The notes under the pieces were generated by a model. The model was not told the DNA's origin and searched no databases. It saw nothing but the letters and a program-made list of their open reading frames with translations. A program made the translations under genes and the position numbers. 34,055 nt of DNA from positions 1-34,055 of IMG/VR virus record IMGVR_UViG_3300010222_000011. The stretch is one strand, 5' to 3'. Source of the stretch: a virus (Duplodnaviria; Caudoviricetes). Positions 1,559-26,119 of this stretch are shown in pieces (position 1 is the first letter of the stretch; every line of letters begins with the position of its first letter).

Positions 1559-2197
1559 TTATACGTATCTGTGTTTTTCTATCCGTGTTTGATAAAGCCT
1601 GTTAACTTCGTCTTCTGTCATCGCCTTCCTGTAGATCTTGGCTTCGCTCAGCGATCCCTGAAAAGCCTGTGCCTCAGAAGGCCTCGAGCCGATCCGCATC
1701 GTATTACTGTTATCGACATCAGAGGGCGTAATACTTCGACTGTCTTTGACCTCGCCACCGTTCAAATAAACACTGATCGTGTCTTGGCTTCGGACGGCTA
1801 CGTAGTGATGCCACTCCCCAAAACTGGTTAGCTCCGGTGCAACTTCGTCGCCCTCGCTGAAATGCCGTATACGCCAAGCACCGTTCGCCTCCTTCAAACC
1901 ACAAATAATACCTTTACCGCCGTAGTTCGACAAGAAGGTTGGAAAGTTCGAGGTCTGGCTTTCGTCAGCGTTAAACCATACCTCAGCCGTATAACTATCA
2001 GTCCCAAGATCGACTACCCAGCCCGTATCAATATTCGAGTTTTTCCCGCTGAAGTCCACGGATTTACCGATTGGTCCAGAATCATCGATCGGGAAACTAC
2101 CTGAACTAGGTTCACCGTGTCTATCGTAAGCAGACTTGTCTCTGTAACTGTCGTCGTTCAAAGTCCACCAACCTTCGACTTTCTCGTTTAGACTCAT
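1559..2197 (-). CDS. LamG/concanavalin A-like domain protein, 212 aa
   Basis: WxL..D.S start, YTAEVWF, EWHHYVAVR..ISVYLNG, RIGS..FQGSLSEAKIYRKAMTEDEV. Confidence 0.9.
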   Translation of the reverse strand: MSLNEKVEGWWTLNDDSYRDKSAYDRHGEPSSGSFPIDDSGPIGKSVDFSGKNSNIDTGWVVDLGTDSYTAEVWFNADESQTSNFPTFLSNYGGKGIICGLKEANGAWRIRHFSEGDEVAPELTSFGEWHHYVAVRSQDTISVYLNGGEVKDSRSITPSDVDNSNTMRIGSRPSEAQAFQGSLSEAKIYRKAMTEDEVNRLYQTRIEKHRYV

Positions 2198-3567
2198 ACC
2201 TTGTACCTCTTTACGGGTTCGGTAACATTCGCCAGCTTTTCAACTTCCGCATCCGAAAGACTTCGGCTCAAGATTCTTATATCATCTAAGCGTCCTGTAA
2301 AGATTTTTCCGCCGTTCTGGTCCTGCCAGCAACCGATGCCGAGGACTTCTTCCTCTTTACCGCCGTAATCAATGCTAGTGTACTGAGTGTTTTCCCCGAC
2401 TTGGGCTCCGTCTACGTAAAGCGTGACTCGTTCCCCGGCTTCGACTGTAACCAGTACGTGATGCCATTGTTGATCGCTGAGGTCTCCGCCCATGATTTCA
2501 TAAGTAGAGCCGGATTGACTGTTCCAGATAAAACGAGCACCATTATTCAAAGTGTCTAAGCGGTAGCCGTCTCCGTTCCCCACAGAAGTGCTATGATTGC
2601 TTATTAAGCCGACGTAGTCCTCGATGTTTCCGGTATCTGCTTTCACCCAAGCCGCCAGTGTCAAGTCCTGAGTGTTAGGCATCGGCGGCGTCACCAAGGC
2701 TTTACTGCTAGAACCGCCGTTATCCACGCATTGAATCGCTTGATTAATCTTCCCCTCCACTAAATCCGGTTGAGTAAGTGTGCCGCTGTCAATATCTCGA
2801 CCGTTCAATGATAGGTCTTTGAACGGTTTGCTGTCCTGCAGCTTCACGTCTACGTTGTCGAAACTGTAATGCGCCTCCAAACCGGTAAGTGCCTCACTGG
2901 CTTTCAAGGCATGTGTTCTATCACTCCTGATTTTGTAAAGTTGGTTGATTTCTTCGTTTGAGAGTCTTCTATCGTAGATACGTATGTCGTCCAGTCTTCC
3001 TTCTAGGTAGGCTTCTTGATCGCCAAAGCTTCCGGCGAACGTTTTCACGCCTCCGAAATCAGTTATATCACCGCTGACACTCCTTGAATCCTTCAACTCG
3101 CCGTCAAAGAATATCTGTATCTTCCCGTTCCCGAATCTAGCGGTAACATGTGTCCACACACTTTCGGGAAGCGGATCGGTATTGTATTCGTTGTCCGAGT
3201 CGCATTCAACGTAGAACCCGAACTCATCTTTTGTAGTCTGCAAACCGAAGACATCGTTGTTTCCGTTCGTATAATTACCGATAAGGCTGTCGACGGAGCT
3301 GTTTGTGTCGTGGCCGTTCGTTGTTCCCGGTTGAAGATTACTGGGTCTACACCATAGAGAAACAGTGAAACTTTCTTTGCCCGTAAAATCATAGTTCATC
3401 TCTAGGCTAGAATCCGTGCCGTTAAAGCCGTAAGCACCGTTGATCTTGCCGTTTTCGCCGGTTGTGACGCCGCCGTTCTTCGTGGCATGCCTATCATACG
3501 CACTGCTGTCGTAAGGAGTATCCTTGTCTAGTTTCCAGTGACCGACCAACTGTTTCTGCAGACTCAT
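2194..3567 (-). CDS. Tandem two-domain LamG/concanavalin A-like protein, 457 aa
   Basis: Two LamG units: FTVSLW...WTHVTA..IFFDG..GRLDDIRIYDRRLS and LTLAAWV...WHHVLVT..LYVDG..GRLDDIRILSRSLS. Confidence 0.92.
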   Translation of the reverse strand: MSLQKQLVGHWKLDKDTPYDSSAYDRHATKNGGVTTGENGKINGAYGFNGTDSSLEMNYDFTGKESFTVSLWCRPSNLQPGTTNGHDTNSSVDSLIGNYTNGNNDVFGLQTTKDEFGFYVECDSDNEYNTDPLPESVWTHVTARFGNGKIQIFFDGELKDSRSVSGDITDFGGVKTFAGSFGDQEAYLEGRLDDIRIYDRRLSNEEINQLYKIRSDRTHALKASEALTGLEAHYSFDNVDVKLQDSKPFKDLSLNGRDIDSGTLTQPDLVEGKINQAIQCVDNGGSSSKALVTPPMPNTQDLTLAAWVKADTGNIEDYVGLISNHSTSVGNGDGYRLDTLNNGARFIWNSQSGSTYEIMGGDLSDQQWHHVLVTVEAGERVTLYVDGAQVGENTQYTSIDYGGKEEEVLGIGCWQDQNGGKIFTGRLDDIRILSRSLSDAEVEKLANVTEPVKRYKV

Positions 3568-9106: not shown

Positions 9107-9568
9107 TTAAACGCTTAGTTCTGCGGTTTTCTCCGCCTCCCTGATTTTCTGTCTGATACGGTTTCTCTTGTTTGAAGCAGTTCCGTACCCTATATTCATT
9201 TCATCGGCCGCTTCTTGGACTGTGTACCCGAGTTTTTCTGTTAAAATATAGACTTTGGCTTCTTTTTTCGCTAATCTAGTATTTTCTTCTAATTCTTTAA
9301 TACTGTTTTCATCAAAATTATCTACATCCTGTTTTTCCTTCAAATATTCTTCTCTATTTAATTCAGGAGAATATTTCTTTATCAGCTCTTTTTCTCTTTG
9401 TTTTCTAGTACTAGCATTCTTGATCATTTCAGTCTTTACATCTACAGTATCTCTTGCAGTTATAATATGCTGTCTTAAACGCCTCTTAACGTTCTCAGAG
9501 CTCCCGATATAGATAATTTCTTCATCTTCTATAATCTTATAGATGCCTGCCTTATTTGGAAAACTCAC
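9107..9568 (-). CDS. GIY-YIG nuclease domain fused to a C-terminal HTH, 153 aa
   Basis: GIYKI..IYIGSS..VKRRLRQH..E...IKKYSPELN, followed by the HTH TVQEAADEMNIGYGTASN. Confidence 0.88.
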   Translation of the reverse strand: MSFPNKAGIYKIIEDEEIIYIGSSENVKRRLRQHIITARDTVDVKTEMIKNASTRKQREKELIKKYSPELNREEYLKEKQDVDNFDENSIKELEENTRLAKKEAKVYILTEKLGYTVQEAADEMNIGYGTASNKRNRIRQKIREAEKTAELSV

Positions 9569-9882: not shown

Positions 9883-10130
9883 TATTCTACCACCTCCTTG
9901 ACTTTCTCCACAGCTTCCTCACGGCTTTCAAACTCGCCGATTCGATGTTTGATCATCCAAGGATCGTTGTCTGTTCCGCCTGTCATTGAGACAATCCAGT
10001 CTTCTACTCCTCGGCTTGCACCGACTGTGATACCTGATTTTTCTGTGAAGTCGACTGCGACTTCGAATACTTTTTCGTTGTTTTTGAGAACTTCTGCGTT
10101 TTCGTTTTCAAGTTGCATGTTCTTTGTCAT
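9882..10130 (-). CDS. 82-aa hypothetical protein (start MTKNMQ)
   Basis: The ATG lies just after the conserved GAAGGTAG leader; the longer track start runs into the promoter. Confidence 0.7.
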   Translation of the reverse strand: MTKNMQLENENAEVLKNNEKVFEVAVDFTEKSGITVGASRGVEDWIVSMTGGTDNDPWMIKHRIGEFESREEAVEKVKEVVE

Positions 10131-10134
10131 GGTC

Positions 10135-10182
10135 TTTCTACCTTCTATACTTATATTATACCTTAACACTTATAAAGGCTTC
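10135..10182 (-). promoter_or_regulatory. Conserved early-type archaeal promoter, copy 1
   Basis: Minus TTTATAAG (10176-10169), then about 20 nt, then TATAGAAGGTAGAAA. Same layout as at 17.36 and 21.82 kb. Confidence 0.75.
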
Positions 10183-14760: not shown

Positions 14761-16221
14761 TTAAATCACAAAGCCGGTGTTGGGCTCAAACATTGACATC
14801 ATTAAAGAATCACTGAAGTCAGGGCTGCCGCTGTCAGGATCAACAATCCGGACCTTATCCTTAGCCCGGCGCTCCGTCCTTATATGAGTCAGTTCATGCA
14901 CCAGTTTGTTACTCGGCATATCCAGATCATTATTACGCCAACCATCCATGAAAGAAATTGTCTGGTCCTGCAAGTGATCCCGGAGCTTGAAATAATTCCG
15001 GGCCTTCTTATTCTGAAACCTGTCCCCTTCACTACTGGGGTTGGTGCCGGCCCGGAACTCCGAAACACTGTACCCGTATTCTTTTAGTTTGCTGTAGACA
15101 CCGGCCCCAATACCTACACTATCGACAATCACTCCGTCAACTTTTCCTGGTTCCTCTTTAATCCGGTTACGTATCCACTCCGCGGTACTCCCGGTATCAC
15201 TACTGTACTTCTTACTGAATTGATCCGTAACCAAGTGCTCGCCCTTCAAACTTTCTTTCCGGCTTACGACTATCAGGTCTTCGCCTTTCCCGGCTATATC
15301 GGCTGAGTATTTTACATCAGTATCAAGATCCAGGTCACGGTTTTTACTGGCTTCAATAAAGTTAACTCTGCGTTCAGCTCTCTTAATCCAAGAATGTTTG
15401 ATCAATGCGTTATCAACTTGATCCGGAAACCTTGACTTGTACAAGACTTTGTACTCCAATGAATTTTTTCCGCCAACATCTTTAGCCTTCTTATCAAAAA
15501 ATCTTTCTGAGTGGCGACCGATTTCTATTCCTTTTTCATCATCGACATGGAAACACTTGAAATCATCACTGATCCAATGACTATAGAACTGGTTGTCCTT
15601 ATGGAAAGGGTTCCCGGCCTCAATCAGGACTGCGTCCTCAGTGTTCAGCATACGGGCAATATTCTTCTTCCAAACACTTTCACTGATACGATTACTTTCG
15701 TCCATTACAACGATGTCGGCGCCTGACCCCATCAATCCTTGGCCCTTACCACTACTCCCTGAACTAGCGGATAAACACTGGATCCGTATATCTCCATCGT
15801 TCAAAGTAATCAATGACTGACTAGCACTTTTCTTTAAGTCTTCAGGATCACTGCCCCGACTAGTATCAATCATGTCCTTGAACTCCTTGCTTTCCAAACC
15901 AGCCTCAAGTAGATCGTCTCTTACGTTTTCTGCATCATTCATTGCCGGGCCGATAATACTTATTTCAAAATTACTTAGGTTTTCACCGTTCAAGATAAGG
16001 TGGAGCGCAAGGCCGACTCCGATGCTGAAAGATTTTCCGAATTGGCTGTATGTGTTGAGAAGTAAACGGTTTTCAGTTTGGAATACAATAGTTTTTACAA
16101 TGTCTTCTTGAATCGGGTATAGTTCTATGTTGAAGAAGTAGTCTACCAGGACTTTGACATCCTTTTGTTGAATAGCTTTCTCCAGTAAATCACTTTCACT
16201 TTCCTGTCTTTGTTTTGTCAT
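14761..16221 (-). CDS. terL: Terminase large subunit (likely start MTKQR at 16221)
   Basis: Q motif LYPIQ, Walker A SQFGKS, Walker B IVVMDES, AGNP, and RNase H nuclease motifs SADIAGKGED, DSVGIG, SPDFSDS. Confidence 0.93.
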   Translation of the reverse strand: MTKQRQESESDLLEKAIQQKDVKVLVDYFFNIELYPIQEDIVKTIVFQTENRLLLNTYSQFGKSFSIGVGLALHLILNGENLSNFEISIIGPAMNDAENVRDDLLEAGLESKEFKDMIDTSRGSDPEDLKKSASQSLITLNDGDIRIQCLSASSGSSGKGQGLMGSGADIVVMDESNRISESVWKKNIARMLNTEDAVLIEAGNPFHKDNQFYSHWISDDFKCFHVDDEKGIEIGRHSERFFDKKAKDVGGKNSLEYKVLYKSRFPDQVDNALIKHSWIKRAERRVNFIEASKNRDLDLDTDVKYSADIAGKGEDLIVVSRKESLKGEHLVTDQFSKKYSSDTGSTAEWIRNRIKEEPGKVDGVIVDSVGIGAGVYSKLKEYGYSVSEFRAGTNPSSEGDRFQNKKARNYFKLRDHLQDQTISFMDGWRNNDLDMPSNKLVHELTHIRTERRAKDKVRIVDPDSGSPDFSDSLMMSMFEPNTGFVI

Positions 16222-16562
16222 TGTTTTTTGGTCCACATCTTATGCGTTGTGATTATTTCAATGATCCCTCTTTCTTTAATATTGTAATAATAATAGACAT
16301 CGTTTTCGTCATCCAATTTCCTGGTTTCCAATGCTTGAAGTACAGGGTTCTCCTTCAAGTAAATGTTGTATCCGCCTCTATCACTTCTAGCGGTCAGAGA
16401 ATAGTTTTTACTGTAACCGAGTTCTCTTAATTTGTTGCTTAATGCACGGCTTGGATAGCTGTAGTTGTATTCTTCCGCTATTTCCTTGACTGTCTTGTTT
16501 TTGTCTAGTTCTTTCTCTAACTGTTCCAAACTTATCTTTGATTTACCTGTCATTCTATCCAC
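16218..16562 (-). CDS. HTH protein with a possible AbrB-like C-terminus, 114 aa
   Basis: KTVKEIAEEYNYSYPSRALSNKLRELG. Confidence 0.6.
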   Translation of the reverse strand: MDRMTGKSKISLEQLEKELDKNKTVKEIAEEYNYSYPSRALSNKLRELGYSKNYSLTARSDRGGYNIYLKENPVLQALETRKLDDENDVYYYYNIKERGIIEIITTHKMWTKKQ

Positions 16563-17196: not shown

Positions 17197-17322
17197 TTAC
17201 TGCATCCCGTTTAGTTCTTTTTCTCCTTTCTCGGTTTTTTCTAGGTCATGGTTGCTGCCTTTGAAGTGTCTGCATTTTTTGTTTTGTGCAGGTATTCTGC
17301 ATTCGGGGCATTGGCTCATCAT
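17197..17322 (-). CDS. 41-aa Zn-finger microprotein
   Basis: MMSQCPECRIPAQNKKCRHFKGSNH...; AGAAGGTGA RBS directly upstream. Confidence 0.65.
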   Translation of the reverse strand: MMSQCPECRIPAQNKKCRHFKGSNHDLEKTEKGEKELNGMQ

Positions 17323-17330
17323 TGTGTCTT

Positions 17331-17381
17331 TTCACCTTCTATACTTACATGGACACGCATTACTTATAAACATTTTCATTG
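17331..17381 (-). promoter_or_regulatory. Conserved early-type archaeal promoter, copy 2
   Basis: Minus CAATGAAAATG-TTTATAAG-TAATG, about 20 nt, then TATAGAAGGTGA; 24 bp identical to 21813-21836. Confidence 0.8.
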
Positions 17382-19295: not shown

Positions 19296-19462
19296 TTTTT
19301 ATCATCTTCTCCCATCATTAGTTGTACTGCTTGTTTCTCCGGCTGCAACAAATCCTTCACGTTTCTAATCATTGGATCCTCCAGTAATGGGCCGTCTTGA
19401 ACTAAGTATTTTTCATCGTTAACCGTTGCTATTTCATTGTATACATTACTGTAATCACTCAT
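19292..19462 (-). CDS. 56-aa hypothetical protein (not in track)
   Basis: MSDYSNVYNEIATVNDEKY...; ATGA overlaps at both ends. Confidence 0.65.
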   Translation of the reverse strand: MSDYSNVYNEIATVNDEKYLVQDGPLLEDPMIRNVKDLLQPEKQAVQLMMGEDDKK

Positions 19463-20202
19463 ACGGTTTCTGCACCGACTTTTTCTTTGTCTTTGAGGCA
19501 GTGTTTTAACTGTTGCTCCGCATCTTCGCTGAGTTTGTACTTAACGTATTTCCCGTTGCGCTTGCTTTCAAAATCCAGTTTTTCACGTAACTCGGAGACA
19601 CGGCTCCTCAACGCCTTAACTTTTTCCGGTTTCCCTATTTTCTCAGCTAAATCACTGTATGATACAAAACCGTCAAGCTCTATGAAAGCAGAAAGGATTT
19701 TTTCCTCGTTCTCATTGAAACGTGCATCATCAATTACATTGGCAACATCCTGCTGCATTTCCACTGCTCCAGAAACACTGTACAACTTTTTCCCGTTCTC
19801 CATCTTTGTATCCAGCAGGTCTTCTTTCTCCAGTTTCTCCACATATTCCTGTAAAGCCATTGGTGCCTCACCCAGTTTATCAGCCAAATCATCTAAAGAA
19901 AGAAACTCGTCTTCCTCAAGAAAAGCCCACAAAACTGTTTCCTCCTTATCAGGGCTGAACGGATTAACGTACTCCAACTGGTTATAAGGCGGTTTAAACT
20001 CGTTTATCAAATGCTTCTCCATTAACTCCCGGATATTTTTCTCTGTTACAACCTCGAACGTGGCTTCATCCCACAACGGTTTGTCATGCGAGGTCACTCT
20101 TTTCCTTAGGCTGGATGCCCGGCCGATGTAAACCAGTTTGAGGTCGCCGCCGGCTTTCCGGCTGTAAAGTTTGTAGATTCCGGGCCGGTCAGGGACGTGC
20201 AT
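19459..20202 (-). CDS. GIY-YIG nuclease with two tandem winged-helix domains, about 247 aa
   Basis: PGIYKL...VYIGRA..LRKRV..H...E..LI...KPPYN, then two wHTH repeats (LSLDDLADKLG; VSYSDLAEKIG). Confidence 0.85.
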   Translation of the reverse strand: MHVPDRPGIYKLYSRKAGGDLKLVYIGRASSLRKRVTSHDKPLWDEATFEVVTEKNIRELMEKHLINEFKPPYNQLEYVNPFSPDKEETVLWAFLEEDEFLSLDDLADKLGEAPMALQEYVEKLEKEDLLDTKMENGKKLYSVSGAVEMQQDVANVIDDARFNENEEKILSAFIELDGFVSYSDLAEKIGKPEKVKALRSRVSELREKLDFESKRNGKYVKYKLSEDAEQQLKHCLKDKEKVGAETV

Positions 20203-20206
20203 TGCG

Positions 20207-20542
20207 TTACGCCTGCTCTGCATCACAGTTTTTATCACCTTTCTTGTTATAATGTTCTGGATTTAGGTCGTAGAAAGTATGCCTATCAAGTCTCTCAACT
20301 AATTTTGGGAAGTCAAGTAAATACCTTGATTTCCGGTTTTGATGCACTGTAATAGGTAGAACAGCAAACCTTCTGTCAAGTTCATTTTGGGTTACTTCCT
20401 CGTATTCTGTGTGAGTTCCATCAGTTACCTTGTACTCCCAGTCTTTGGTCTCCATGTTGAACTTGTAAGCAGAGACTTCGCAGATTTCTTGTTTTTCTCT
20501 ATCGTAGATCAGTCTACCTCTCCGTACAGGATTATCTGTCAT
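20207..20542 (-). CDS. Hypothetical protein, about 111 aa
   Basis: ATGA coupling; beta-rich N-terminus. Confidence 0.6.
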   Translation of the reverse strand: MTDNPVRRGRLIYDREKQEICEVSAYKFNMETKDWEYKVTDGTHTEYEEVTQNELDRRFAVLPITVHQNRKSRYLLDFPKLVERLDRHTFYDLNPEHYNKKGDKNCDAEQA

Positions 20543-20949
20543 TGATTCCATTCACCTTCGAGAACTGTTCCTATTTCGTCTACGTTCTCGTGGTATTCCT
20601 GTTTTTCTTCAAACCCTGTTAAAGCTTTTTTCAGTCCGTTGTTTACTACCATTGTGAACTTGATATGATTGGTTCCATGCTCCTCAACTACAAAATCCAT
20701 TAAGTCTGTGAAGTCGTTGTCGTATTCCATCCAAACCATGCTGATATACAGAATATCTTGATCGGGGACATGGCAGTAGTGCATACAGGATTCTCCTTTC
20801 CTAACATGGAAGAATGGGTATCCTTTAGGTGTCTCACCTTTTCTGTTTAACTTGATTTCAGGTTCTTGGCCTTCCCTCTCCGGCAACTCTTGATTCCCTT
20901 TTTCCAATCTATCTACAACTTCCGCTACAGTATCCTCTAAATCACTCAT
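20539..20949 (-). CDS. Hypothetical protein, possible degenerate GNAT fold, 136 aa
   Basis: LYISMVW...FTDLMDFV...IKFTMVVNNGLKKALTGF resembles GNAT motifs A/B. Confidence 0.5.
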   Translation of the reverse strand: MSDLEDTVAEVVDRLEKGNQELPEREGQEPEIKLNRKGETPKGYPFFHVRKGESCMHYCHVPDQDILYISMVWMEYDNDFTDLMDFVVEEHGTNHIKFTMVVNNGLKKALTGFEEKQEYHENVDEIGTVLEGEWNQ

Positions 20950-21389
20950 TTGCTATCTCCTCCTAGATCCTGTAAAATGTTGTAGTAACCGTTCGTCAAA
21001 GATTTAACAAGATCGATGTGTTCAGCTCTCTCCCTTTCATCACCTAGATCCAAATTGGCTTGGCGACTGGTTTCACATGCTTCTTTCAACGCTACCTGCA
21101 GTTCTGGAGGAATATAGGAGTCAGTGTTTTCCCCCCTGTCACTCCCTGCGCTTTGTGCGCCTTCATTGTCACTTGACTCCTTAATAACATCTATCTTCTT
21201 TATATCAATGAACTGGTCTTGATTGGTTTTGACTTTGACTTTATCGCCTTTACTCCATTCACTTGGTATGCTGCCTTCACCGTTCAACCATTTTTCTTCC
21301 TGGCCGTTGTCTACAAGGATACCGTAATATCCTTCATCAGGTTTCGGGCTGAAGTTCTTTAGAACACCTGTAAAACTTGACTTACTCAT
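20946..21389 (-). CDS. Putative OB-fold ssDNA-binding protein, 147 aa
   Basis: FTGVL...YGILV...WLN...KGDKVKV beta barrel, then a linker and a helical C-terminus. Confidence 0.5.
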   Translation of the reverse strand: MSKSSFTGVLKNFSPKPDEGYYGILVDNGQEEKWLNGEGSIPSEWSKGDKVKVKTNQDQFIDIKKIDVIKESSDNEGAQSAGSDRGENTDSYIPPELQVALKEACETSRQANLDLGDERERAEHIDLVKSLTNGYYNILQDLGGDSK

Positions 21390-21783: not shown

Positions 21784-21836
21784 TTCTACCTTCTATATCA
21801 TACATTGGTATACATTACTTATAAACATTTTCATTG
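21784..21836 (-). promoter_or_regulatory. Conserved early-type archaeal promoter, copy 3
   Basis: Minus CAATGAAAATGTTTATAAGTAATG, about 20 nt, then TATAGAAGGTAGAA. Confidence 0.8.
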
Positions 21837-21870: not shown

Positions 21871-22242
21871 TTAGAAATCTCTCTTCGGTAAACCTGTATC
21901 CAACTTCTCATGTGTATGCTCCTTCAAATCATCAATTGCTTTCTGCATACCAGTTGTTCTTTCATGAATATCATCAAGCCTATCATCATGCTCACTAACT
22001 ATGTACCGGTTGGCAGCTTTCATTCTCTCCTTAAGAATATCCTGCACAGAAAAGACTTGATCGGCAACTCCTTCATCTATATCCCATAACTCGCCGTAAT
22101 CAACTTTTCCCACGTGGTCTATGAGAAAATCCTCAACCGCCTTAACCTTATTTCTTAGCTCTCGAGAAGTCGTTGATTCTAAATCAGATTTTGAAAGTTC
22201 TGCAAATTCTTCTAGTTGTTCTGGTAATTCCATTACATTCAC
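21871..22242 (-). CDS. Acidic helical protein, about 120 aa (likely ATG at 22233)
   Basis: Monocistronic, with GGTGA RBS, its own TATA (22310-19) and a terminator. Confidence 0.7.
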   Translation of the reverse strand: MNVMELPEQLEEFAELSKSDLESTTSRELRNKVKAVEDFLIDHVGKVDYGELWDIDEGVADQVFSVQDILKERMKAANRYIVSEHDDRLDDIHERTTGMQKAIDDLKEHTHEKLDTGLPKRDF

Positions 22243-22349: not shown

Positions 22350-22495
22350 AAAAAAATATTTGAGGAGAATATGTAGGGGGAGAATTTAGAAGAGCGCCCA
22401 ATCCCCCCTCAAATAGGCCCGGTATAAAGACCTGCGGCGCTTGAAGGTAGAAAAAACCAGTGTTCTGGAGACACTTGCGTTTTTTCCTCTAAAAG
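22350..22495 (-). ncRNA. Putative structured (pseudoknotted) small RNA, about 145 nt
   Basis: TATA at 22517-26, five helices with G-U pairs favouring the minus strand, and a U7 end at 22356-50; no ORF. Confidence 0.6.
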
Positions 22496-22553
22496 CTGGG
22501 CTTGAATAGACCAACTTCTATAAAAACAAATATTACCAGCCAATCCTAAAAAA

Positions 22554-23117
22554 CTAATGGTTATTCAACGCCTGACGAGTCGCACGATCACAAACCCGTA
22601 AATCCACACGCCGACTCGTCTTATAGATAGAATCCTCCGTCTTATCCAAATCCTCATCATGTTCATACTCGGGGAACAAGTTATGCAGAACTTCATGATT
22701 ACATACCGTATCAAACTGTGTAGCCGTCAAACCCGTCTCAACAAAAATCGTGTTATTATGAGTAAAAGTTTTGCCCATAACATTTCTCCCACTTTGTGCC
22801 TTTACCTGGTCTACCACATGAAACCGGTAAACACCTGATGAAAAGTTCTTCTCCTGTGCAACAATCCGGCTGTTATTGTAGGGTTCTCCAAGAATGTTTC
22901 TAGCGTTCTCCGAGCCCTCACTGTAGCCCTGCCGGTAGCCATCATTCCATTGCTGAGACTTTATCTCCTGCCGTATCTCTTTTTTCTCTTCAAGATGATT
23001 CTGTTTCATCTCCTGTATCTGCTCGGTGTGCTCCGCCTGAATACTATGGAATACGCCTAAGAAACCTATAATTATCAACGTGTTTAGAATTATCTGTAAA
23101 ACAATGAGTCGTCTCAA
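22554..23117 (-). CDS. Membrane-anchored zincin-like metallopeptidase, 187 aa
   Basis: N-terminal TM helix, coiled coil, GYRQGYSEG, then GKTF...IFV...HEVLH (HExxH). Confidence 0.7.
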   Translation of the reverse strand: MRRLIVLQIILNTLIIIGFLGVFHSIQAEHTEQIQEMKQNHLEEKKEIRQEIKSQQWNDGYRQGYSEGSENARNILGEPYNNSRIVAQEKNFSSGVYRFHVVDQVKAQSGRNVMGKTFTHNNTIFVETGLTATQFDTVCNHEVLHNLFPEYEHDEDLDKTEDSIYKTSRRVDLRVCDRATRQALNNH

Positions 23118-23392
23118 TTTTCAACAGGCTCCTTATCATATTCTTCTTCCTTTGATTTTTCATTCTGCATATTCCGGAGCTGTTTCTTAACATCCTCCGG
23201 CAGTTTTACAATCTTCCAAGTACCTGGAGCAGTCCTCTCCACCAAATCATGTAGTTCAAAAGTTTGGATCGCCGATTTGGCAGAACTTTTTCCGCTGTAC
23301 ATTCTCTCAGCAAAACTCAAAGTAATCACACCATTATTCTTCTTCACAGCCATCAACAAAAGATTGGACTGTTTCTCAGAAAGACCTGTCAT
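23114..23392 (-). CDS. Winged-helix protein, 92 aa
   Basis: LSEKQ..LL...ITLSFAERMYS..SAKSAIQTFE..LVER..G.W. Confidence 0.65.
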   Translation of the reverse strand: MTGLSEKQSNLLLMAVKKNNGVITLSFAERMYSGKSSAKSAIQTFELHDLVERTAPGTWKIVKLPEDVKKQLRNMQNEKSKEEEYDKEPVEN

Positions 23393-23922: not shown

Positions 23923-24038
23923 TCTTTCTCTTCTATTCCTGCAGCTTTTTCAAGCATTTCAAGCCATGTTCTGTCGTTTTTCTCTGATTTAAGTTCTTTG
24001 TGCTTATCGTCGTCCATCGGAATCCGTACTTCCTTCAT
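23919..24038 (-). CDS. 39-aa RHH-like microprotein (not in track)
   Basis: MKEVRIPMDDDKHKELKSEKNDRTWLEMLEKAAGIEEKE; near-leaderless behind TATTTAAA (24062-69); GTGA overlap. Confidence 0.7.
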   Translation of the reverse strand: MKEVRIPMDDDKHKELKSEKNDRTWLEMLEKAAGIEEKE

Positions 24039-24131
24039 GTCTGTGATATGAGTGTGTGTTGTTTAAATAACCTTGTGTACTTTTCATCTGGATAAAAGAC
24101 AAGTATTTATAAACAGAAAAACCTTAAACAG

Positions 24132-24181
24132 TCCCTAGAGGCCAAAGTTAGGCCTCAGCCCCACGATTTCTAGTGGAGGGA
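24132..24181 (+). ncRNA. Putative three-way-junction small RNA element
   Basis: TCCCT/AGGGA closes GAGGCC/GGCCTC and CCAC/GTGG hairpins; TTTATAAA at 24106-13 just upstream. Confidence 0.4.
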
Positions 24182-24210
24182 AGAAAAATTGAACTCCATA
24201 TGTGATCAGG

Positions 24211-24472
24211 CTTGTGTACATACACAACATACATACACAAGGTCACCAACATACTCATTCTCATACAAAAACCTACTTTCATTTATAAAATCCACAAGTA
24301 GTCTTGTGTATTGTGTATGACTACTTATGCAATACAACACAATAGTTTGAAGAAATAGGCTCGAAATTACAAAGTATGCTCTTGAAGTTTAAACTGAATA
24401 ACAAAACAAATCTTTTGTTTCAAGATATAATACAAAAAACCGAATCTTTGTTTGATACTATAATACAAAAAC
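24211..24472. repeat. Iteron/operator array, candidate replication origin
   Basis: Repeated TTGTGTA/TACACAA, two inverted repeats, and two TTTGT-N13-ACAAA units 33 bp apart; AT-rich. Confidence 0.55.
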
Positions 24473-24583
24473 TAGTTTTTTGATCCGATTAAATACTCTT
24501 GAACCTCAAATTCCTCCCTAGAAATATTAGGATTCCAGTATCAACTTTTTTCGGAAAAACCGGGATCGCAGTACCAGTTTTTT

Positions 24584-25588: not shown

Positions 25589-25846
25589 TCAGTTACTACC
25601 ACCCTTACTTTCATTGGGTTGAACACATACCTTTCTCTCGTAATCATAGTAAGCACTATTATTATCCTCGTTGAAGTGTTGTGTGAGCTTGCAGGCAGTA
25701 ACATTTGTTTCAAAACCTATATCCTGGTCCTGCACGTTTTGAGGTCTTAGTTCGCTGTTTATGTAGAAACCGGTTAACAGGAATACAACCAGTAGGACTG
25801 CGGCAAATACTCCGATGTAGAAATCTGTATGCTTCAAAGGATCCAT
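25589..25846 (-). CDS. Single-pass membrane protein, 85 aa
   Basis: TM helix FYIGVFAAVLLVVFLLTGFYI; external domain with two Cys. Confidence 0.7.
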   Translation of the reverse strand: MDPLKHTDFYIGVFAAVLLVVFLLTGFYINSELRPQNVQDQDIGFETNVTACKLTQHFNEDNNSAYYDYERKVCVQPNESKGGSN

Positions 25847-25894: not shown

Positions 25895-26119
25895 TTATAA
25901 AACGTGTTTCTCTCCGGTCACATCAGGTACATTGTCTGCTTCACGGTTCTTTAAATGCTGCCGGACATGTTTCTTCCAATCTTTGACCTGGCCAGGCTTC
26001 AAATTAAACCATCTATCATTTTTGCCTTCAATATCGAAACTGACTTTGATTCTTACAGCTTGCGGGTTTTCCTTACTGGGAATGTATTCTTGTTCTACGG
26101 CTTCAAAATGCTGACTCAT
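25895..26119 (-). CDS. 74-aa protein at the end of the tail module (possible fibre chaperone)
   Basis: Follows the hub gene; AAGGA RBS. Confidence 0.55.
   Translation of the reverse strand: MSQHFEAVEQEYIPSKENPQAVRIKVSFDIEGKNDRWFNLKPGQVKDWKKHVRQHLKNREADNVPDVTGEKHVL

Follow-up and report, generated by a model that had tools for sequence, protein, structure and literature searches.

A segment of the minus strand at 22459-22443 in the complete, circular 34.0 kb virus genome IMGVR_UViG_3300010222_000011 is probably the seed of a virus-encoded small RNA (sRNA) that would pair in trans with the predicted 5' ends of three mRNAs and block their translation. The segment is complementary to all three of these 5' ends, at a set position behind three TATA boxes that match one another, and the complementarity co-varies in a virus-specific manner in five relatives. 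The window referred to below is the entire record of 34,055 nt, the ends of which overlap by 55 nt; the features discussed are listed in Table 1.

Table 1. Coordinates of the candidate sRNA, its predicted targets and associated features
Feature	Position	Strand	Basis or remarks
Small gene upstream of candidate sRNA	23114..23392	-	Alignment; synteny in 4/6 viruses
Candidate TATA box of sRNA, TTTTTATA	22519..22526	-	Sequence
Candidate sRNA, ~145 nt	22350..22496	-	Both ends predicted; non-coding gap between ORFs
Predicted 5' hairpin	22439..22496	-	3' arm holds most of seed; seed end ACCUUC partly open, predicted toehold
Antisense seed, 17 nt	22443..22459	-	Perfect core 22443-22453; duplex energies
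Two further predicted hairpins, 3' of seed	22357..22438	-	Last one alone no more stable than shuffles (z -0.18)
U7 run, likely terminator	22350..22356	-	Sequence; on the model of archaeal poly-U termination
TATA box, local target promoter	21818..21825	-	TTTATAAG
Target leader 1, starts GAAGGUAGAA	21774..21795	-	10 perfect pairs and 4-6 pair extension
First gene of local operon, 63 aa	21583..21774	-	Alignment; homologues in all six viruses
TATA box, target promoter 2	17363..17370	-	TTTATAAG; 44 nt direct repeat, 82% identity to 21.8 kb promoter
Target leader 2	17322..17340	-	14 pairs (6+8), one bulged A; small Cys-rich ORFs, then terminase block
Terminase gene	14761-16236		Downstream of target leader 2
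TATA box, target promoter 3	10169..10176	-	TTTATAAG
Target leader 3, best target	10130..10146	-	16 pairs, one G-U, one bulge; reaches A of AUG

Identical TTTATAAG boxes start at 10176, 17370 and 21825, lying 31, 31 and 32 nt ahead of a GAAGG motif respectively; the initial annotation had placed the three leaders at the same distance behind a shared promoter, of which the shared box stands while the exact equality does not. The seed, found 0.6-12 kb from its targets on the same strand, can form 14-16 pairs with each leader, the predicted duplexes having energies of -21.7 (10.1 kb leader), -17.7 (17.3 kb) and -16.9 (21.8 kb) kcal/mol. The 11 nt complementarity originally reported for the 10.1 kb leader was confirmed and found to extend further, to 22459, and the 10 nt complementarity to the 21.8 kb leader (21793-84) and the pairing with one bulge, a single A, at the 17.3 kb leader were both recovered. 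Counting exact copies on both strands, TTCTACCTTC occurs exactly three times, at 10136-10145 (+), 21784-21793 (+) and 22443-22452 (-), against 0.13 expected, a total reached in 0/100 shuffles for a pattern that was picked after the fact; an 11-mer version of the seed has its sole match at 10135, and with one mismatch allowed the motif occurs at chance level (six seen, 3.8 expected). The three leaders are the top three of 39 TATA-like sites for pairing with the seed, the 10.1 kb leader ranking first both among these and among 225 candidate start codons, with the start codons of the three target genes ranking 1, 3-4 and 7. When sites are instead ranked by pairing with any part of the candidate RNA, several unrelated start regions score like the targets.

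A fourth TTTATAAG box is present near 25901, ahead of the ORF at 25589-25846, and has a leader that does not match the seed. The target TATA boxes are preceded by a purine-rich element that the candidate sRNA promoter does not have. Several other genes, including those for the portal and protease, have TTTAAA-type boxes instead, so it is by promoter class only that the targeted operons may be termed 'early'. Besides small unassigned proteins, these operons encode two proteins of the GIY-YIG/HTH type and one that may have an OB fold, the last based on a hint of an OB-type fold in an Atlas search with 20946-21389. The GIY-YIG and HTH proteins, at 9107-9568 and 19459-20238, are each in an operon behind a targeted promoter. 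The 63 aa protein has no match in Pfam or PHROG, and its best Atlas score, 0.79, is to no named family. Between the candidate sRNA and the local target lies a 123 aa ORF (21871-22242) with a possible promoter of its own; the relatives have no ORF as large between these two regions.

Within this genome alone, such matches could reflect chance or a generic anti-Shine-Dalgarno complementarity. The best antisense match of 31 arbitrary TATA-led 5' ends, searched genome-wide, averages 9.5 nt, and at least five of the 31 have an 11 nt antisense match somewhere in the genome, making the seed match unremarkable in this single sequence. In addition, GAGG, AGGT and GGTG form the genome's ribosome-binding motif, found at 16, 16 and 15 of the 53 starts against approximately three expected; part of the seed is correspondingly anti-Shine-Dalgarno-like, and other Shine-Dalgarno-rich starts pair with energies of -17 to -18.

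Relatives were collected through a terminase alignment that gave 16 loci, one being this genome itself. Four were usable, having both a homologue of the 63 aa gene and its upstream region (L054, L056, L060 and L067); the counts exclude the other 11, in whose available DNA the target gene has no homologue and which are either fragments or, like L068, distant. A separate search of 70 genomes from the nanohaloarchaeal phylum contributed one new locus, L094; L105 likewise was without the region. No match was obtained against phages with blastn of the region or with the terminase, the DNA search of five related records returned only chance matches of 14-27 nt, and a promoter-pattern scan of viral contigs yielded 52 single-match loci, of which 51 were unrelated and one very distant. 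A single-protein terminase scan found nothing, and further viral scans mostly gave the same contig. L094 lies, together with L097 and L098, on a 40 kb contig (G039:C2) in a genome of the nanohaloarchaeal phylum. This contig has tail genes and the module of sRNA, promoter and 63 aa gene in common with the genome studied here, and its terminase, portal and capsid genes do not match those of this genome; it is a mosaic virus in which the sRNA module persists.

All five relatives with the region carry, on the gene strand of the syntenic intergenic region, an antisense copy of their own leader. In a first test the longest perfect match was 13 nt in L054, 12 in L056, 8 in L060, 9 in L067, 12 in L094 and 10 in this genome, lengths reached by 0, 1, 45, 7, 1 and 3 of 200 shuffles of the intergenic region. 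L060 failed this test because its mRNA appears to be leaderless, and passed only after the target window had been moved post hoc to the predicted start (TATA +29 to +50), where the duplex has an energy of -27 kcal/mol and a 2 nt bulge. In a six by six matrix of regions against leaders, the longest perfect matches of cognate pairs are 10, 12, 12, 8, 9 and 12 nt, as against 5-8 nt for non-cognate combinations. For the local leaders, no other of the 720 permutations scores as well as the cognate one, whether by length or by energy, and cognate pairs are best in all six columns; on the opposite strand the corresponding figures are 552/720 and 118/720. For the distal leaders, 1.8-12.3 kb away, the cognate permutation again comes first of 720, narrowly so by energy, and cognate pairs are best in four of the six columns; here, too, the opposite strand gives no such result. 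Background windows reach the observed match at 0-1% of positions in five of the six viruses and at 15% in L060.

The sequences of L067 and L094 were read after the prediction had been written down, and both fit. Leaders of different viruses have only 4-8 of 12 nt in common, which indicates wholesale compensatory change rather than common ancestry of one motif. When structure is included, net binding favours the cognate leaders in L056, L060, L067 and L094; in L054 the local target, with hand-set RNA ends, has a net binding of -8.0, weaker than four of the five foreign leaders. Co-variation of seed and leaders was thus found in every one of the five relatives, always on the gene strand, and the permutation test largely refutes the chance explanation, which we regard as highly improbable. 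A further promoter, at 2403-2450 in L061, a fragment that does not include the sRNA region, has a leader nearly identical to that of L054, a sequence resemblance that suggests these two viruses may form a common specificity group.

The position of the pairing bears on how the RNA might act. In 13 of 14 targets it begins at TATA +28 to +32, which is the predicted transcription start, and in a few it reaches 1-2 nt upstream of the predicted +1. It covers a Shine-Dalgarno-like GAAGGU or GGAGG, or the AUG, in every virus, and among the targets are a leaderless start (L060) and regions around the AUG (L056 and L067); the presence of targets other than Shine-Dalgarno sites in three viruses argues against an anti-Shine-Dalgarno artefact. 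The blocking of ribosome-binding sites proposed in the initial annotation therefore holds as regards targeting of 5' ends, but as it is mainly the AUG region that is paired in three relatives, 'anti-5' end' is the better description. Pairing from +1, extending slightly upstream in places, would also suit an RNA that acts on transcription, by binding the mRNA 5' end as it emerges, or the promoter in its open state, with early termination or decay as the outcome; P4 CI is described as terminating transcription (PMC4825925) and phiH Tant as triggering cleavage (PMC4284463). Steric blocking, however, directly explains why a Shine-Dalgarno-like site or AUG is reached in every virus, there is no common PAM- or TAM-like flank and no Cas or TnpB match was found among the 53 ORFs, such that an effect on transcription appears unlikely. 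A PAM-dependent mode was rejected, as no flank is common to 13 targets.

Action in trans is favoured by the distribution of the targets. A second promoter of this class occurs in every virus, at a distance of 1.8-7.1 kb, and this genome and L067 have a third. Across these paralogous promoters, 59/72 positions of the paired segment are kept, as against 62/126 in the spacer and 48/126 in the sequence downstream (Fisher p 4e-6), both of which drift; the proteins encoded downstream do not look related. In this genome, L054 and L067, pairing with the distal target equals or exceeds that with the local one, and in L056, L060 and L094 it is weaker; equal or better distal pairing in three of six viruses favours action in trans. 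Together with co-variation in all five relatives, this supports the original proposal of one trans-acting sRNA directed against three dispersed operons. A competing possibility at the RNA level is an anti-leader acting in cis, with a read-through transcript folding the seed onto the adjacent leader and the distal matches being leftovers of promoter duplication. The promoters are indeed partly duplicated, no more than 89-124 nt separates seed and local leader in L094, L067 and L060, and the predicted read-through fold of L094 pairs the two. In this genome, by contrast, 648 nt containing an ORF and U runs separate seed and local leader, and cis pairing in a read-through RNA has a predicted probability of 0.19; better pairing of the distal leaders in this genome, L054 and L067, and the retention of their paired segments amid drifting flanks, also make an exclusively cis-acting element a poor candidate. 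The two modes could coexist, and the short distances in L094, L067 and L060 mean that cis folding may add to trans action. The third promoter of L067, at 2298-2345, has a leader beginning GAAGGTG, like that of this genome, and its pairing with the L067 seed is confined to the AUG region; it is possibly an imported module caught mid-adaptation.

From the flanking signals we infer both transcription of the sRNA and its two ends. Archaeal transcription can end at poly-U runs, and one such run follows the candidate hairpins. All six viruses have a TTTWWW run at 67-141 nt upstream of the seed, although T-rich runs are common anyway; the pattern of T runs upstream and downstream, which was defined post hoc, is matched by 3-14% of all positions, so it provides weak support. 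A bacterial promoter and terminator scan, ill-suited to archaea, gave nothing useful. The fold of 22355-22496 has a z of -2.3, with 3/200 shuffles equally stable. The seed had been described as an unpaired junction, which fits its partly open 3' half (probability unpaired 0.68) but not its 5' half, which is in a stem (0.03); opening the seed in this fold costs 6.5 kcal/mol. Net predicted binding in this genome is -7 to -9 kcal/mol, and one foreign leader reaches -11.7, using hand-set RNA ends.

The ends of all six candidate RNAs were set by hand from a T-rich box approximately 30 nt upstream and a downstream U run, giving lengths of 88-192 nt and fold z of -0.8 to -4.0, with the 3' half of the seed having a probability of being unpaired of 0.27-0.86 and opening costs of 1.3-11 kcal/mol. 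In this genome, L067 and L094 the 5' part of the seed is predicted to be in a hairpin arm, with the part facing the mRNA start more open and a hairpin and U run following 3' of the seed; only in L054 is the seed in a loop. The half-open layout in these modelled structures suggests that strand displacement could be initiated from a toehold. No alignable common core was found in the six RNAs. At gathering thresholds, Rfam has no match in this genome and the five relatives except a weak tRNA in L060 (6254-6413, minus strand; 31 bits, 160 nt, possibly intron-containing), and at E<=10 the only match is a ylbH leader (E 3.5).

The gene strand folds better than the opposite strand in five of the six viruses, the exception being this genome, the two strands of which fold alike (z -1.9 and -2.0). 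An RNA from the plus strand, which is purine-rich here, might then carry a sense copy of the leader and act as a decoy. As all genes and U runs are on the minus strand, the opposite strand folds worse in the five relatives and the partner of a decoy would need a new specificity in each virus, this is scarcely credible. The complementarity could also exist at the level of DNA, as an inverted repeat: a second copy of an operator, a promoter in inverted orientation, or the two ends of a promoter segment capable of inversion. Either orientation is possible for a DNA site, the two members of the local pair flank the TATA box, and the G-U asymmetry (11 and 8 G-U pairs, the main strand being stronger in 10/14) is weak and does not separate RNA from DNA pairing. 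The wholesale replacement of the sequence between viruses is something a protein-binding site would not easily allow, though, and the inverted orientation in all six viruses, the occurrence of bulges and G-U pairs and the lack of an integrase or recombinase match likewise speak for RNA, leaving a DNA element very unlikely. An inverted promoter was rejected, as none of the six viruses has a TATA box on the opposite strand at 22-34 nt ahead of the sense copy. Among the sequencing runs listed for the region there was one of DNA, possibly the run from which this sequence came, and none of RNA, which counts neither for nor against transcription; contigs from the DNA run, a source that drops rare variants, had no joints or inversions.

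The initial annotation had described the RNA as conceptually like P1 C4 or P4 CI. In phages P1 and P7, c4 is encoded upstream of its target in the same direction and is cut from the operon that it controls, through RNase P processing of the target transcript, with two loops acting on one mRNA. The candidate sRNA resembles c4 in its predicted pairing around the ribosome-binding site and in a specificity that differs between related viruses, but would direct one seed at the 5' ends of two or three operons, each with its own promoter and as far as 12 kb away, belongs to an archaeal virus and has no conserved RNA scaffold. The pairing segments of c4 are in loops of a conserved fold, whereas the candidate seed is predicted in a hairpin arm or, in L054, a loop. 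The C4 target is an antirepressor operon; the first target gene here, of 63 aa, matches no known family. The candidate does not match the Rfam C4 covariance model. The proposed mode of action is like that of P1 C4, and the likeness in logic stands, but the candidate is not itself a C4 RNA, there being neither an Rfam match nor a C4 fold. Guide RNAs of the CreA/TldR type are protein-bound and have a repeat or scaffold, a PAM or TAM beside their targets and an effector gene; a guide of this type was rejected, as there is no repeat family at the site, no flank common to 13 targets and no effector match among the virus ORFs.

The c4 antisense RNA pairs around a phage mRNA ribosome-binding site, blocks translation and underlies heteroimmunity between relatives (PMC12197685), and P4 CI is a small antisense RNA silencing the element's own lytic and replication operon (PMC4825925). 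CI arises by processing of the leader under regulation and, via seqA/seqC, terminates transcription, whereas the targets here are dispersed mRNA 5' ends. The view that no such system is known in archaeal tailed viruses needs qualification, since antisense control is known from phiH, in which Tant is directed against an early lytic transcript, the ribosome-binding site is lost and immunity results (PMC4284463; PMC6210493). Tant is cis-encoded on the opposite strand and has one target; the candidate is trans-encoded, with a short seed and multiple targets, and its seed is on the same strand as the target genes. The antisense RNAs described for HFTV1 are opposite-strand transcripts too (PMC12542753). 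An archaeal sRNA that masks a ribosome-binding site in trans, sRNA162, has been described in Methanosarcina mazei (PMC3510493); it is cellular, with an internal target and a single-stranded linker, and the sequence relation, compared by Rfam scan alone, gave no match. As in trans-encoded sRNAs as a class, the candidate has short, imperfect complementarity to targets elsewhere and a seed that co-varies with them (best of 720 permutations). No trans-encoded, multi-target sRNA from an archaeal virus was found in the literature outside most subscription journals and bioRxiv supplements, and the main text of a preprint on nanohaloarchaeal viruses (bioRxiv 10.1101/2025.02.15.638363) does not contain the terms 'antisense', 'small RNA' or 'promoter'.

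The host of the virus is likely to be a nanohaloarchaeon. The genome, the genes of which are on the minus strand, encodes a portal, prohead protease, terminase, and neck and tail proteins. Its terminase and that of halophage eHP-35 have 63% identity, and the identity to proteins from Candidatus Nanohaloarchaea assemblies is 41-46%; eHP-35 and eHP-23 were tentatively assigned to Nanohaloarchaea (PMC3316494). The capsid protein matches that of HRTV-28 at 30%, which nests among nanohaloarchaeal viruses in the same preprint (bioRxiv 10.1101/2025.02.15.638363), and the proteome is acidic (E+D 17.5%). Neither an integrase or recombinase nor a Cas or TnpB protein was matched among the 53 ORFs. The protein of the small gene at 23114-23392 is likely to bind DNA, one homologue having a weak HTH-type Pfam hint (E 0.03); cellular homologues occur in 6/70 genomes of the nanohaloarchaeal phylum, and the housekeeping genes on their flanks suggest host-virus exchange. 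An AT-rich non-coding stretch at 23930-24480, with T-rich runs and a 33 nt tandem repeat at 24403-24468, is possibly the replication origin, and similar gaps are present in L060 (851-1300) and L067 (3300-3620). Two adjoining LamG/concanavalin-like genes at 1559-3567 are likely to encode host-attachment proteins.

In the mechanism we propose, the sRNA would be made from its own T-rich promoter, running from 22496 to approximately 22350 on the minus strand and ending at the U run. Contact with the first mRNA nucleotides would be made by the seed's 3' end, which is partly open, and the duplex would then zip into the hairpin arm by strand displacement, covering the Shine-Dalgarno site, the AUG or both and so, we infer, blocking translation. 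The RNA could jointly switch off two or three dispersed operons that have strong promoters of a single class, as a lytic shut-off or as immunity in the carrier state. If seed and leaders change together and fast, each virus would acquire a specificity of its own, as is the case for c4 of P1 and P7. Such turnover of specificity fits immunity groups, and the lack of an integrase match is compatible with a plasmid state and with a lytic timer alike.

More tentatively, and with less confidence than in the sRNA itself, these viruses may represent a nanohaloarchaeal (DPANN) family with a scaffold-free RNA master switch, in which toehold binding and strand displacement take place at the first mRNA nucleotides and seed and leaders are rewritten in each lineage, generating private RNA addresses and RNA-coded immunity groups in Archaea. 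Almost nothing has been described of gene control in DPANN viruses, and archaeal sRNA-target pairs with compensatory evolution are rare. The six cognate sets of seed and leaders, with complete turnover of sequence, constitute ready-made orthogonal pairs, which could be used to test whether pairing at the 5' end blocks archaeal translation initiation, including that of leaderless mRNA, and whether this needs Lsm, LSM being present in three of five genomes of the host phylum searched.
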